Below are positions 10,550-51,935 of a stretch of DNA of 64,000 nt, piece by piece (positions within the stretch are counted from its first letter, which is position 1; every line of letters begins with the position of its first letter). The notes under the pieces were generated by a model, which was given only the letters and a program-made list of their open reading frames with translations, searched no databases and had not been told where the DNA came from. A program made the position numbers and the translations under genes. The DNA is from Clostridia bacterium (lineage in GTDB: Bacteria > Bacillota > Clostridia > UBA1381), in assembly GCA_034090805.1 (NCBI GenBank), contig JAXDRV010000138.1:66188-130187 (forward strand), read 5' to 3'.

Positions 10550-10796
10550 TAGGTAATTGTAAAATGTCGGTTGGGGATTTGAGAGTGTTTTTGAATTTAT
10601 TCGTACTCAAACATCCCTTGCGGTAACTCGTCCGAACAAACTCAAAAACACTCTCAAATCCTATAATTTTGAAAGAATTTGTGATGTTTATGATTGAGTT
10701 TCGGCGAGTTACCGAACAAAGTGAGGGATGTCTGAGCCGAGGCTCAAGCAGAAATATCTCAAATTCCTAAGAAATCTCGAATTTTACAATCGCCTA
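10550..10796 (+). mobile_element. MITE-like modular repeat, composite form (TIR-L, hairpin module A 10575-10661, inverted paralogous module B 10675-10766, TIR-R)
   Basis: Ends are TAGGTAATTGTAAAAT ... ATTTTACAATCGCCTA. The direct repeat TATATAATTCAA lies at 10538-10549 and 10795-10806. Homologous to 7 other loci in this window. Confidence 0.85.
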
Positions 10797-10828
10797 TATA
10801 ATTCAACTAAAAGAAAGAGGTAATTGAA

Positions 10829-11857
10829 ATGGCAAAATCATTAGACCATGAGGCAAGAGTTTTCTATGAGGGCGACTGCGATCTTAAGCTTTTACAGGGC
10901 AAGACGGTTGCAATCATAGGCTTCGGTTCACAGGGCCACGCACACGCAATGAACCTGAAGGACAGCGGTGTTAACGTAATCGTAGGTTTAAGACCGGGCA
11001 GCGCAAGACGCTCGCACGCAGAGGCTTACGGTATTCCCGTATATGATACGGCAGAGGCGGCTAAGAAGGCTGACATCATAATGATACTTACACCTGATGA
11101 AAAGCAGGCAGCTATATACAAGAATGATATTGAGCCGAATCTTGAAGAAGGCAATATGCTTATGTTTGCTCACGGCTTCAACATTCACTTTAAGCAGATC
11201 ATTCCTCCGGCAGGTGTAGACGTAACAATGATCGCCCCCAAGGGACCCGGTCATACGGTACGTTCGGAGTATGTTGAGGGCAAGGGTGTTCCCTGTCTTG
11301 TTGCTGTTGAGCAGGACGCTACAGGCAAGGCTCAGGATTTGGCACTTGCATACGGCGCAGGTATCGGCGGCGCAAGAGCAGCTATTCTTGAAACAACATT
11401 CCAGTGCGAAACAGAAACAGACCTGTTCGGTGAGCAGGTAGTTCTTTGCGGCGGCGTAACAGCTTTGATGCAGGCAGGCTTTGAAACACTTGTTGAGGCA
11501 GGCTATGACCCCAGAAATGCTTACTTTGAGTGTATCCACGAAATGAAGCTTATCGTTGACCTTATCTACGCAGGCGGCTTCAGCAAGATGAGATATTCAA
11601 TCTCGGATACAGCAGAGTTTGGTGATTACGAAACAGGTAAGCGTCTTGTAACAGACGAAACAAAGAAGGAAATGAAGAAGGTTCTTGAGGAAATCCAGGA
11701 CGGTACATTCGCATCGAAGTGGATTGCAGAGAACAACAACGGCAGAGCTCACTTCATCGCTACAAGAAACCTTAAGGCTGAGCATCAGCTTGAAAAGGTC
11801 GGCGCAGACATCAGAAAGTTCTACGCATGGAGCAAGGAAGACAAGTACGTTGATTAA
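10829..11857 (+). CDS. ilvC: Ketol-acid reductoisomerase
   Basis: NADP-binding motif [17 protein letters not shown]. Full-length match to the class I KARI pattern. RBS AAGAAAGAGG. Confidence 0.95.
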
Positions 11858-11871
11858 TTTAAAAACATACG

Positions 11872-11912
11872 CACCGCATCGGGAGCAAATACCTCGATGC
11901 GGTGTTTTTTTT
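11872..11912 (+). terminator. Intrinsic terminator after ilvC
   Basis: Stem CACCGCATCG (11872-11881) / CGATGCGGTG (11895-11904), followed by T8. Confidence 0.85.
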
Positions 11913-11988
11913 GTTACGAAGTACACATTTTAATATGAAAGGGGAGAAGGCAAACAAAAAGACGGCTTGGAAATCCAAACCGTCAAAT

Positions 11989-12075
11989 TGGTGCCGATGA
12001 CCGGGGTCGAACCGGTACGGTATCGCTACCACCGGATTTTGAGTCCGGCGCGTCTGCCAATTCCACCACATCGGC
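11989..12075 (-). tRNA. tRNA-Leu (anticodon CAA)
   Basis: Reverse complement reads GCCGATG...CCGGA-CTCAAAA-TCCGG...long variable arm...ACCGGTTCGACCCCGGT-CATCGGC-A-CCA. The cloverleaf was folded by eye. Confidence 0.85.
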
Positions 12076-12109
12076 ATATGCGGCACTTATGCGCCGCTTA
12101 TTTTTTAAA

Positions 12110-12355
12110 TTATTCAGCTACGAACGGGAGAAGAGCTATCTGTCTTGCTCTCTTTATAGCTGTAGTAAGCTGTCTTTGATGCTTTGCACAGTTACCGCTG
12201 ATACGTCTGGGAACAATCTTTCCTCTTTCGGAAACGTATCTTCTCAGCTTTGCTGTGTCCTTGTAATCAATATGCTCAACCTTATCTACACAGAACAGGC
12301 AAACCTTTTTCTTAGGTCTTCTTGCTCTCTGGGGTCTTTCATTTCTTTCAGCCAT
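12110..12355 (-). CDS. rpsR: 30S ribosomal protein S18
   Basis: Translation [48 protein letters not shown]. Confidence 0.95.
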
Positions 12356-49856: not shown

Positions 49857-49971
49857 ACAAAATATGTCTGTCTTAATTGTGCAGTATTACTCTTGAAGCT
49901 AAGCAAAAAGCGTGGTAGTATATATATGGTATTTTACGGTAAGTAAAAATAATTATAGACGGAGGAATATC

Positions 49972-50802
49972 ATGTATATAAGATTTAAAGACGGAAAGCG
50001 CAAGGCGCTCACATTAAGCTATGATGACGGAGTTGTTCAGGATATACGGCTTTCGGATATTATGAAAAAGAACGGCATAAAGGGTACGTTCAACATTAAC
50101 AGCGGGACATATCTTGATGAGGAGGCTGTTCGTGAGAAGTATTACGGCAGAATGAAGCTTTCGGAGGCAAAGGCACTCTACACAAATTCGGGCAATGAGG
50201 TGGCTGTTCATGCGTATACGCATCCTCGGCTTGAATTGCTTGATACGACAGAGATATTAAGCGAAGTTATTGAGGACAGAAAATCAATAGAAAAGGAATA
50301 CGGAACTATAGCAAGAGGCATGGCGTATCCTTTCGGAACCTACAGCGATAAGGTTGTCGAGGCACTTAAAATGTGCGGCATATGCTATTCAAGAACAACG
50401 AAGGCAACGGAGAGCTTCGGACTCCCGGAAAATTGGCTGACGCTTGACCCGACGTGCCACCACAACAACCCAAGGCTTATGGAGCTTGCAAAGCAATTTG
50501 TTGAAGAAGAACCGAGATGGGGCGGAGTGTGGATGTTCTATCTTTGGGGACACAGCTATGAGTTTGACAATAATGATAACTGGAACGTCATAGAGGAATT
50601 TTGTGAATACATGGGCGGCAGAGATGATATTTGGTATGCAACCAATATAGAAATATACGACTATGTAAAAGCATATGAGAATCTGCAAACGAGTGTAGAT
50701 AAAAAAATCATACACAATCCGTCAAATACGGACGTATGGGCAGAGCATAACGGCAAAGTAATAAAAATCAAGGCAGGCGAAACGGTAACGCTTGACGATT
50801 AA
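49972..50802 (+). CDS. Polysaccharide deacetylase family protein
   Basis: ATG 49972 lies 7 nt after GGAGGAA. Motifs LTLSYDDGVVQD and HAYTHP. Confidence 0.8.
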   Translation: MYIRFKDGKRKALTLSYDDGVVQDIRLSDIMKKNGIKGTFNINSGTYLDEEAVREKYYGRMKLSEAKALYTNSGNEVAVHAYTHPRLELLDTTEILSEVIEDRKSIEKEYGTIARGMAYPFGTYSDKVVEALKMCGICYSRTTKATESFGLPENWLTLDPTCHHNNPRLMELAKQFVEEEPRWGGVWMFYLWGHSYEFDNNDNWNVIEEFCEYMGGRDDIWYATNIEIYDYVKAYENLQTSVDKKIIHNPSNTDVWAEHNGKVIKIKAGETVTLDD

Positions 50803-50805
50803 TTT

Positions 50806-50838
50806 AAAACGGCTCGGAAAAGTTATCCGAGCCGTTTT
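50806..50838. terminator. Bidirectional terminator
   Basis: AAAACGGCTCGG-AAAAGTTAT-CCGAGCCGTTTT. Confidence 0.85.
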
Positions 50839-50847
50839 GTACGTTAT

Positions 50848-51648
50848 TTACCATGTACGTGATTTCATTTCCTTAAATTGTCCGACGGTTGAAACGTGAG
50901 CGTTTAAGCCGCCGTCAACGGTAACAACCTGACCTGTGAAGTATTCGCTTTCATCAGATGCCAGATAAACGCACATATTAGCAATATCCTTCGGATTCCC
51001 GTAACGGTTGACCATGATGTTGTTTAGAAAAATATCCTTAAGCGCCTGAGGTACGTGTGCTTCGTTTTCGGGTGTGACAATCAGACCGGGACGCACGCAG
51101 TTGCAGCGGATATTGTCCTTGCCGTACTGCAATGCCGTTGATTTTGTCAGCATATCAACTCCGGCTTTAGCACAAGCATATGCAGTCGAACCCAAATCTC
51201 CGCCGCATGATGCCATAGAGCCGATGTTAATAATCGAACCGCCGTTATTTTCCTTCATATACGGCAAAATGCACTTTATTGCATAGAATGTGCCGCGGAG
51301 ATCGCTTTGGAAAATTCCGTCCCACATTTCAAGCGTCAATTCGTCCACACGTCCGTCCTTGAGGGCAACGTTGGCGGCATTGTTTACCAAAATATCGATT
51401 TTTCCGTATTTATCGGCAGTATCCTGGAATAAAGCCTCAATACTGTCCGTTGCGGTAATATCCATAAAATGATAATATGCCTCTCCGCCCTCGTTTACTA
51501 TGCTGTCAACCACAGCCTGTCCCTTTGCCTCACGGCGTCCGCAGACAACAACCTTTGCACCCTCCGCGGCAAAAAGCTTTGCAATTCCTACGCCTATTCC
51601 GCTTGTTGAGCCTGTTACAACAGCAACCTTTCCTTTTAATCTGTCCAT
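50848..51648 (-). CDS. SDR-family oxidoreductase
   Basis: Motif TGSTSGIG, NNAA, and catalytic S...YACAKAG (YxxxK). Confidence 0.88.
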   Translation of the reverse strand: MDRLKGKVAVVTGSTSGIGVGIAKLFAAEGAKVVVCGRREAKGQAVVDSIVNEGGEAYYHFMDITATDSIEALFQDTADKYGKIDILVNNAANVALKDGRVDELTLEMWDGIFQSDLRGTFYAIKCILPYMKENNGGSIINIGSMASCGGDLGSTAYACAKAGVDMLTKSTALQYGKDNIRCNCVRPGLIVTPENEAHVPQALKDIFLNNIMVNRYGNPKDIANMCVYLASDESEYFTGQVVTVDGGLNAHVSTVGQFKEMKSRTW

Positions 51649-51679
51649 TTCAACCTTCCTCCTTTTTGGTTCAATATGC

Positions 51680-51935
51680 TAAGTAATTGTAAAATATCGG
51701 TTTTGATTTGAGAGTATTTTTGATTTTATTCAGACTCAAACATCCCTTGCGGTAACTCGTCTGAACAAACTCAAAAACACCCTCAAATCTCCCAATTCGT
51801 TACAGTTTCGGGGGGATTTGTGATGTTTCCGGTTAAGCTTCGGCGAGTTCCGAACGCAGTGCGGGTGTTTGTGCCAAAGCTTAATCGGAAATACCCCCAA
51901 TTCGGTGACGGTAATCCGCATTTTACAATTACCTG
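51680..51935 (+). mobile_element. MITE-like repeat, composite form (modules A and B)
   Basis: Ends TAAGTAATTGTAAAAT ... ATTTTACAATTACCTG. Collinear with the 10550 copy. Weak flank repeat TTCAATATG / TTTAATCTG. Confidence 0.85.

Follow-up and report, generated by a model that had tools for sequence, protein, structure and literature searches.

What are the eight hairpin-forming repeats that lie between genes along 64,000 nt of the genome of a Clostridia bacterium (contig JAXDRV010000138.1, positions 66,188 to 130,187; this whole stretch is hereafter the window)? An original prediction, made by inspection of the window, described them as a dense family of MITE-like elements (MITE, miniature inverted-repeat transposable element), all of them intergenic. 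The analysis reported here supports that description best: the eight repeats are very probably copies of a non-autonomous DNA transposon, as evidenced by terminal inverted repeats (TIRs), target-site duplications (TSDs), empty orthologous sites, element junctions repeated in other contigs and copies at further loci. The family was previously uncatalogued as far as searched, and the kind of system to which it belongs is already well known.

Alignments, a repeat finder and a base-level coordinate check recovered all eight copies at the positions originally proposed, amounting to five intact and three defective copies, each in intergenic DNA (Table 1; copies are named by their first position). 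A profile built from them and run with nhmmer matched these eight and no further locus of the window (E 1e-88 to 1e-18). A 22-nt arm pattern gave 12 matches in the window against 0.00 expected, and a TIR pattern nine matches against 0.29 expected. Two forms can be distinguished. The short form, of 141–142 nt, comprises the copies at 28891, 37250 and 41123, whose predicted identity of roughly 90% was measured as 89–92% in pairwise alignments, together with a decayed reverse copy at 33597 (ca. 71% identity). The composite long form, of 247–256 nt, comprises the copies at 10550 and 51680, which are 77% identical to each other, and a reverse copy at 43455; the remaining copy, at 22834, corresponds to the right half only. 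Defects are of three kinds: the copy at 22834 is truncated, that at 33597 has decayed TIRs, and that at 43455 has suffered internal deletions between short direct repeats, having lost the apex of one hairpin module (module A) between two ACTCAAA repeats as well as most of its left TIR. None of the copies has a coding capacity beyond spurious open reading frames (ORFs) homologous solely to those of other copies; the peptide FESVFEFVRTSYRKGCLSTNKFKNTLK, singled out earlier as common to such ORFs, was found in minus-frame translations of the copies.

The elements consist of nested inverted repeats which are, from the outside inwards, the TIR, a variable linker and one or two hairpin modules. TIRs of 16 nt were confirmed at both ends of five copies; their sequence is YAGGYRATTGTAAAAY, with an invariant core AATTGTAAAA, and in the 10550 element they read TAGGTAATTGTAAAAT on the left and ATTTTACAATCGCCTA on the right. 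The enclosed hairpin module, with the arms and conserved apex that had been predicted, is ca. 100 nt long and contains 37–44% G+C. Its stem of ca. 25 bp leads, by way of a GGC/GCC (or GAC/GUA) clamp, into an asymmetric internal loop, capped by a short apical hairpin that varies. The internal loop has GAGUU on its 5' side and RUGUYUGA on its 3' side, within invariant DNA motifs CGAGTT and RTGTYTGAG, respectively, and the apex as a whole can be written as GGCGAGTT N4-30 GGATGTYTGAGCC. Apical hairpins vary but stay paired (ACC-GCAA-GGG, ACG-CUUG-CGU, CUC...GAG or UCCGC-GCARCGUA-GCGGA); in the decayed copy at 33597 the first of these has become the second, and the loop motifs CGAGTT and ATGTTTGAG are retained. 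Long elements carry a second module, B, which repeats the design of module A, inverted and with a longer tip, so that in the 10550 element module A is apex-sense on the minus strand and module B on the plus strand. In profile coordinates, the short form corresponds to the long form without the stretch enclosed by two 9-nt CTCAAATYC repeats, and would most simply have arisen by deletion of module B between them. Predicted stabilities of the hairpins formed by the copies range from −47 to −97 kcal/mol; a long element can fold either as two hairpins or as a single one of 247 nt (−96.6 kcal/mol, z = −10), and all modules fold far better than shuffled sequences (z −5 to −11). Among 16 modules, compensatory double changes were found in 20 of the 26 stem pairs. 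The proportion of paired cells in these modules was 91.6%, versus 69.9% in shuffles, a signal that collapsed when the partner strand was slid.

Evidence of mobility was provided by the flanks of the elements. With element ends placed at YAGG...CCTR, exact abutting direct repeats of 10, 12, 11 and 11 nt were found at four of the seven complete copies, namely TATAATTCAA at 10550, AATAAATATAAT at 28891, and GAGCATTTAAT and TATGTAAAAAC at two additional copies in contigs L021 and L022, respectively. As a control, left flanks were paired with right flanks of other copies, and 39 of 42 such mismatched pairs lacked any repeat of at least 6 nt. The duplicated sequences are AT-rich and often resemble a −10 box. 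These TSDs go beyond the original prediction, as do the inversion of module B relative to module A and the positional rule with respect to start codons described below.

Filled and empty sites were then distinguished by comparison between species. The ilvN–ilvC spacer, which houses the 10550 element, measures 316 nt in the window versus 58 and 24 nt in two related species, their IlvC proteins being 96% identical to that of the window. The spacer of contig L025, from one of these species, in which that identity is 87% at the DNA level, aligns to that of the window after subtraction of the element and one of the TSD copies, a single copy of the TSD being present at this empty orthologous site. 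L025 itself has two module-bearing spacers, of 270 and 806 nt, versus 54 and 157 nt in a syntenic third species, L159, which is devoid of these insertions. L008 and L023, two independent metagenome contigs, repeat three element junctions exactly, L023 carrying an identical copy of the 37250 element and a copy 97% identical to that at 41123. Contigs L009 and L024 start inside an element, the usual sign of a multi-copy repeat in short-read assemblies. The two additional long copies, in L021 and L022, were disclosed by a search with the spurious-ORF peptide. The former adjoins genes absent from the window, and the left flank of the latter corresponds to window positions 55618–55833, where the window carries no copy. 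Taken together, the TSDs, the empty sites and these further loci indicate that the family is mobile and extends beyond the eight sites in the window.

Table 1. Positions of the copies and of associated features in the window, with their distance to the nearest downstream start codon.
Feature	Position	Strand	Context	Parts and flanks	Distance to ATG
Left 10-nt TSD TATAATTCAA of 10550 element	10540–10549	.		Right copy 10797–10806	
Intact long element, 247 nt	10550–10796	+	ilvN–ilvC spacer; junctions repeated in metagenome contig L008	Left TIR 10550–10565; module A 10572–10664; module B 10668–10773; right TIR 10781–10796	32 nt (ilvC)
Partial copy	22834–22986	+	Begins just past the terminator of the upstream gene	Module B and degenerate right TIR only	32 nt (small HTH ORF, ATG 23019)
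Promoter-like site	28842–28870		Just 5' of 28891 element		
Intact short element, 142 nt	28891–29032	+	leuC 5' leader	TIRs 28891–28906 and 29017–29032; 12-nt TSD at 28879–28890 and 29033–29044	27 nt (leuC)
Decayed short copy	33597–33725	−	Between two cyclophilin genes	Degenerate TIRs	30 nt (downstream cyclophilin)
Promoter-like site TTGACT-17-TATAAT	37213–37241		37250 element starts 9 nt after		
Intact short element	37250–37391	+	Between divergent gyrA and DAGK-type kinase gene	TIRs 37250–37265 and 37376–37391; flanks ATATATATAG and AAATATATAA, 8/10 positions agree	40 nt (kinase)
Intact short element	41123–41263	+	ANTAR regulator gene/dapF spacer	TIRs 41123–41138 and 41248–41263; flanks CTATAAAG and TTATAAAG	24 nt (dapF)
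Defective long copy	43455–43665	−	5' of gltB, antisense to transcription	Module B intact at 43471–43576	About 18–43 nt (gltB)
Intact, more diverged long element, 256 nt	51680–51935	+	Between enolase and SDR genes (both minus strand), antisense to transcription	TIRs 51680–51695 and 51920–51935	31 nt from left end (SDR)

Pairwise diversity among the seven intact copies was assessed by segment. It amounted to 0.28 in the outer 5 nt of the TIR and 0.27 in the linker, 0.08 in the left arm and 0.04 in the right arm, and fell to 0.01 in the apex and 0.00 in the TIR core. On the simplest reading of these values, several source lineages would have drifted in their linkers, changes to the TIR core or the apex would have cost propagation, and individual insertions would be recent. 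Since apex and TIR core alone are without drift between copies, we take the apex to be a candidate cis-acting site required for propagation, rather than junk.

The species represented by L025, in which ilvBNC synteny is unlike that of the window, extends this pattern. Four modules were found there within 21 kb, three of them with an identical 40-nt apex and the fourth set apart by two substitutions and the deletion of 4 nt. Their stems are almost perfectly complementary, and have only GGRAAT...TGTWTTT remnants in common with each other and with the stems of the window. Recognisably the same TIR, CAGGCAATCGCAAAAT...TGCAATCACCTG, encloses module m2. L025 also contains, at positions 6400–6760, a tandem array of about 3.4 copies of a unit of ca. 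102 nt, each comprising the 3' half of the apex (GGATGTCTGAGCC), a right arm and an extension of 60 nt. At position 6008, ca. 300 nt upstream of the array, there is a solo TIR, AAGTAATTGTAAAATGTACG.

Such observations raise the alternative that the hairpin module, and not the TIR-bounded element, is the real unit, i.e. a selected nucleic-acid motif, either a structured RNA bound by protein or a signal in one-strand DNA, conserved across species and riding in a TIR-bounded vehicle. The apex (CGAGTT, a short hairpin and RTGTYTGAG) does recur four times in 21 kb of the second species on different, compensated stems, where two modules are without TIRs and one site has tandem half-modules. Its near-invariance next to divergent linkers, and an apical stem that covaries (C-G, U-A and G-C pairs; GCAA versus CUUG loops), also agree with this alternative. 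Furthermore, the apex-sense strand gives the more stable fold in 17 of 17 modules, its mismatches being G.U, and in the inverted modules A and B the stability of each follows its own apex. This asymmetry hints, suggestively at most, at a single-stranded form of RNA or DNA, the independent lineages behind it being few (ca. six G.U versus one A.C inherited mismatches, p about 0.06). On the other hand, the apex points both ways relative to transcription in the window (three modules sense, seven antisense), making a cis-acting mRNA motif unlikely, and orientation relative to replication is mixed too. Intrastrand repair can in addition maintain the complementarity of arms in palindromic DNA, no RNA function being required. 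In agreement with the original prediction, which recognised no Rfam motif, a search of Rfam 15 found none at gathering or E-value level, bar generic models of miRNA-precursor hairpins whose matches were far below their thresholds. The distribution of the module is narrow, since covariance model R1 detected none in the other relatives sampled, nor did a search with spurious-ORF peptides of the L025-type apex. All this considered, a motif riding in a vehicle appears unlikely. It is also rather improbable that the module of ca. 100 nt, with its variable, compensated stem, invariant asymmetric loop and small variable tip, is an autonomous functional motif of an undescribed kind. Such a motif could be a protein-binding RNA or one-strand DNA signal present in many copies in Monoglobus-like Clostridia, or the part recognised in an unusual transposition pathway that depends on hairpins and still gives 10–12-bp duplications; the TIR element of the window would then be only one vehicle for it.

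Location of the copies in 5' leaders and operon spacers, 18–43 nt before start codons and in two cases directly after promoter-like sites, together with the biosynthetic nature of several neighbours (ilvC, leuC, dapF and gltB), would also be compatible with a family of riboswitch- or attenuator-like leader RNAs controlling amino-acid biosynthesis. This explanation is disfavoured as highly unlikely: other neighbours (genes for a cyclophilin, a lipid kinase, an SDR and a small HTH protein) are functionally unrelated, two copies run antisense to their gene, orthologous leaders of related species are without the element, TSDs mark insertions, and a nucleotide identity of ca. 90% before unrelated genes is unlike that of regulons. 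No terminator/antiterminator alternative was found in the copies, and Rfam contributed no match. Barely any probability was given to a REP-, BIME- or REPIN-like element moved by an HUH transposase (RAYT, IS200/IS605-type) that recognises a hairpin in single-stranded DNA. Mosaics of imperfect palindromes, inverted for A and B of the long form and direct for modules m3 and m4 of L025, a hairpin that favours one strand and the conserved asymmetric apex are what such a system would display. TSDs of 10–12 bp and separate TIRs are present here, whereas REP and REPIN elements have neither; the copies have no 5' GTAG-type signature, no HUH gene was seen in the window, and modules of ca. 100 nt are much longer than REPs (PMC2817692).

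A non-autonomous DNA transposon thus remains the preferred explanation, and its transposition can be envisaged as follows. A transposase encoded elsewhere would recognise the 16-nt TIRs and insert the element into AT-rich, −10-like sequence by staggered cuts about one helical turn apart, giving rise to the 10–12-bp TSDs. The cargo would be one hairpin module, or two in inverted orientation in the long form, and the apex would be needed for propagation, whether by binding the transposase or a host factor or by means of a one-strand hairpin intermediate. The enzyme would be of the DDE type, the IS4 family being its most likely affiliation. An IS4-type transposase is our best guess, a tentative one, because TSD length equals that of this family and the right ends of the elements start with CA. 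Mobile insertion cassettes derived from IS231 (MIC231) are a precedent in Firmicutes for non-autonomous derivatives mobilised in trans. In the IS4 family as in the window element the TSD spans about one helical turn, IS4-family duplications being of 8–13 bp and often variable (10–12 in IS231, 10–13 in IS4, 10 in ISH8 and 8–10 in IS4Sa), and CA termini occur in several of its subgroups (PMC2266710). The end YAGGYRATTGTAAAAY fits none of the subgroup signatures in Table 1 of that work, except loosely that of IS4Sa (CA------T), to which the right ends, CAGGYRATT, can be related by their CA and the T at position 9.

Several observations weigh against the transposon explanation or against its link to IS4. 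Duplications are not uniform, repeats being only 7–8 nt long at 37250 and 41123, and none was detectable at the intact copy at 51680. Comparison of L022 with the window at 55834 yielded no clean filled/empty pair within one species. The outermost 4–5 nt of the elements vary (TAGG, TTGG, TAAG or TATG; CAGG, CAGA or TGGG). Termini of insertion sequences (ISs) are usually strict. Moreover, left ends start with TA, not CA, leaving TSD length as the basis of the IS4 link. No transposase gene, of IS4 type or other, and no full-length IS with matching ends, as the original prediction advised looking for, was found in the window (Pfam; its content is housekeeping), in ca. 300 kb of related contigs or in viral contigs; in view of this lack of a partner IS, mobilisation in trans is put forward indirectly. 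The strand asymmetry of the modules is a feature for which a site acting solely as duplex DNA would have no need. Finally, the tandem modules m3 and m4 of L025 are without recognisable TIRs, and for this reason, and given the half-module array in the same contig, the module can exist or spread independently of TIRs.

The family was compared with known small repeats of bacteria. Correia (NEMIS) elements of Neisseria, of about 100–160 bp, are alike in their intergenic location, TIRs, hairpins and size dimorphism: they comprise two size classes differing by an internal segment of ca. 50 bp with an IHF site, have filled and empty sites, and form long hairpins processed by RNase III when co-transcribed (PMC2229807). 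They differ in duplicating a TA dinucleotide instead of 10–12 bp and in belonging to a different host phylum, and the extra segment is here a second, inverted hairpin module. We know of no sequence similarity between the two families. ERIC/IRU, RUP and BOX elements are also non-coding imperfect palindromes of intergenic and intra-operon spacers, modular in the case of BOX; ERIC has orientation-dependent effects on mRNA stability, and RUP has been tied to an IS by TIR similarity (PMC2229807). These three families have TA duplications or none and TIRs of 7–9 bp, and a sequence-invariant apex on variable stems is reported for none of them; a partner, IS630-Spn1, is identified for RUP, whereas none was identified here. 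REP, BIME and REPIN sequences resemble the family as extragenic palindromes arranged in mosaics of alternating orientation, whose hairpin is the recognised feature, but REPs are of ca. 20–40 nt, G+C-rich and devoid of TIRs and TSDs, in contrast to the A+T-rich modules of ca. 100 nt with both features described here. The combination of 10–12-bp TSDs and TIRs therefore excludes the TA-duplicating families (Correia, ERIC and RUP) as well as REP/BIME.

Further searches addressed other sources and origins. Plasmids and phages, searched by blastn, returned nothing relevant, and scans of viral contigs for apex and TIR patterns gave chance matches only; TIR-like pairs 2–2.5 kb apart in viral contigs enclose phage structural genes and not transposases. 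Scanning 185,579 species genomes and JGI metagenomes for the arm 22-mer produced single chance matches only, which shows that the species is absent from these collections and says little on the module, whose arms vary across species. A search with spurious-ORF peptides of the L025-type apex found nothing. A tRNA-derived origin was discarded for lack of similarity to the three tRNA genes that ARAGORN identifies in the window (two are detected by Rfam). The internal loop was considered as a kink-turn, given possible tandem G.A pairs beside GGC/GCC; a canonical one was rejected, since the geometry of a 3-nt bulge was not present and the 5' strand has 4–8 nt. A CsrA site (ARGGAUGU) was likewise rejected: it matches some copies, but its GGA belongs to the apical stem that covaries, and other copies have lost it. 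A retroelement, suggested by variable TSDs and one-strand structure, is at best a remote idea, there being no bacterial precedent and no reverse transcriptase gene seen.

Placement of the copies relative to genes was also analysed. No copy lies inside a real coding sequence, and Pfam matches agreed with the gene names originally given to the flanking pairs: ilvN/ilvC, Fe-ADH/leuC, two cyclophilins, gyrA/DAGK-type lipid kinase, ANTAR/dapF, aminotransferase/gltB and SDR/enolase. Six of the eight copies are co-oriented with local transcription, as had been counted, although this bias is not significant (one-sided p about 0.14); inclusion of the two additional copies raises the count to 8 of 10 (p about 0.055). 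One end of every copy in the window was found 18–43 nt 5' of a start codon, a spacing with a joint probability of ca. 2e-5 by a rough estimate that assumes uniform insertion within the pre-insertion spacers. Two copies start 9 and 21 nt past strong promoter-like sites. Such placement would reflect either a preference for promoter-proximal, AT-rich DNA or selection against other insertions. No terminator-like U-tract follows the hairpins in the window, which rejects their reading as intrinsic terminators and fits tolerance inside operons. By their position, the elements must be co-transcribed within mRNAs, where they are predicted to form very stable hairpins, and by analogy with Correia and ERIC elements (PMC2229807) these may alter the processing or stability of host mRNA. 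An outward hybrid promoter formed with TTTACA of the TIR was considered and rejected, since spacing was correct in one fortuitous case and that from the right end to the duplicated TATAAT is 8 nt. Other strong promoter-like blocks recur in the window as repeat families D9 and D10, at 24039–24532, 61656–61688, 21866–21914, 25838–25886 and 39032–39080, some of them near tRNA genes. They read TTGACA...TGGTATTATAAT and TATTATA...TTTGTCAAG and probably represent no more than consensus promoters.

The host is an uncultured pig-gut Clostridia bacterium near Candidatus Ornithomonoglobus. IlvC and GyrA of the window are identical to GenBank proteins MDY3032122.1 and MDY3032145.1 ('MAG: Clostridia bacterium'), and the corresponding 90% protein clusters include Candidatus Ornithomonoglobus intestinigallinarum. 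The organism is also present in ENA assemblies named GAIO21-1, which we take to be the piglet metagenomes of Gaio et al. 2021.

Other hairpin elements were observed in the window and in its relatives. The left flank common to L022 and window 55618–55833 is hairpin-rich and extends over 215 nt, after which L022 continues with a long element and a different downstream gene, and the window with an arm-like remnant, GATTTGAGATGATTTTTATCTGTTC. This junction was dismissed as an empty/filled pair, given that right flanks differ, and looks like a rearrangement breakpoint at an element. A second family of hairpin elements, with a conserved apex of its own (GAAGTATNNACATACNTCGGCA) on different stems, is represented at window 55885–55975. 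In another species it forms an insertion of ca. 144 nt between ilvB and ilvN (L154:4013–4157, and the same site in L156), flanked by an 11-nt duplication, AAGGAGGATTA; the site is empty at L155:3917–3919 and polymorphic between metagenome samples. The end of this second element, ATAACGCAAAAAAT, resembles the TIR core of the first family, so that the same type of transposase may move both. In addition, a long hairpin between ilvC and panB of a relative (L154:5760–6020), with one TIR-like end, GGTAATTGCAATAG, an arm-like sequence, TTTAGAGTTTTGTTTTG, and a different apex, may be a distant relative of the MITE family.

Some unrelated features of the window deserve mention. A 48-nt palindromic, terminator-like hairpin, AAAAACTCTTGAA...TTCAAGAGTTTTT, occurs as two inverted copies, 88% complementary, at 31912–31959, after leuB, and at 60008–60055, after the gene for 4'-phosphopantetheinyl transferase. 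The minus strand of 32047–34393 encodes three tandem paralogues of cyclophilin-type peptidyl-prolyl isomerase, one of them fused to a Cu_amine_oxidN1 domain, with DNA repeats of 68–76% between them (families D2, D3, D6 and D8). At 4925–8052, a 729-aa protein with an N-terminal GAP1-N2 (GTPase-associated protein 1) domain is followed by a 305-aa protein without Pfam match, and the two may constitute a conflict-system pair.

The presence of a dense MITE family explains both the breaks of short-read assemblies at these loci and the spurious ORFs, and implies that a very stable hairpin is now present in eight leaders or operon spacers belonging to core metabolic genes. Annotation and binning of these gut Clostridia would benefit from a family profile together with a covariance model. 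The copies further constitute a natural experiment: divergence between them is 27% in unconstrained parts, yet the TIR core and an apex of 25 nt are preserved, which makes the apex a directly testable candidate site for a transposase or a host factor. An invariant apex on stems that vary across species, the mosaic arrangement of modules and their strict placement before start codons are the most interesting aspects of this family.

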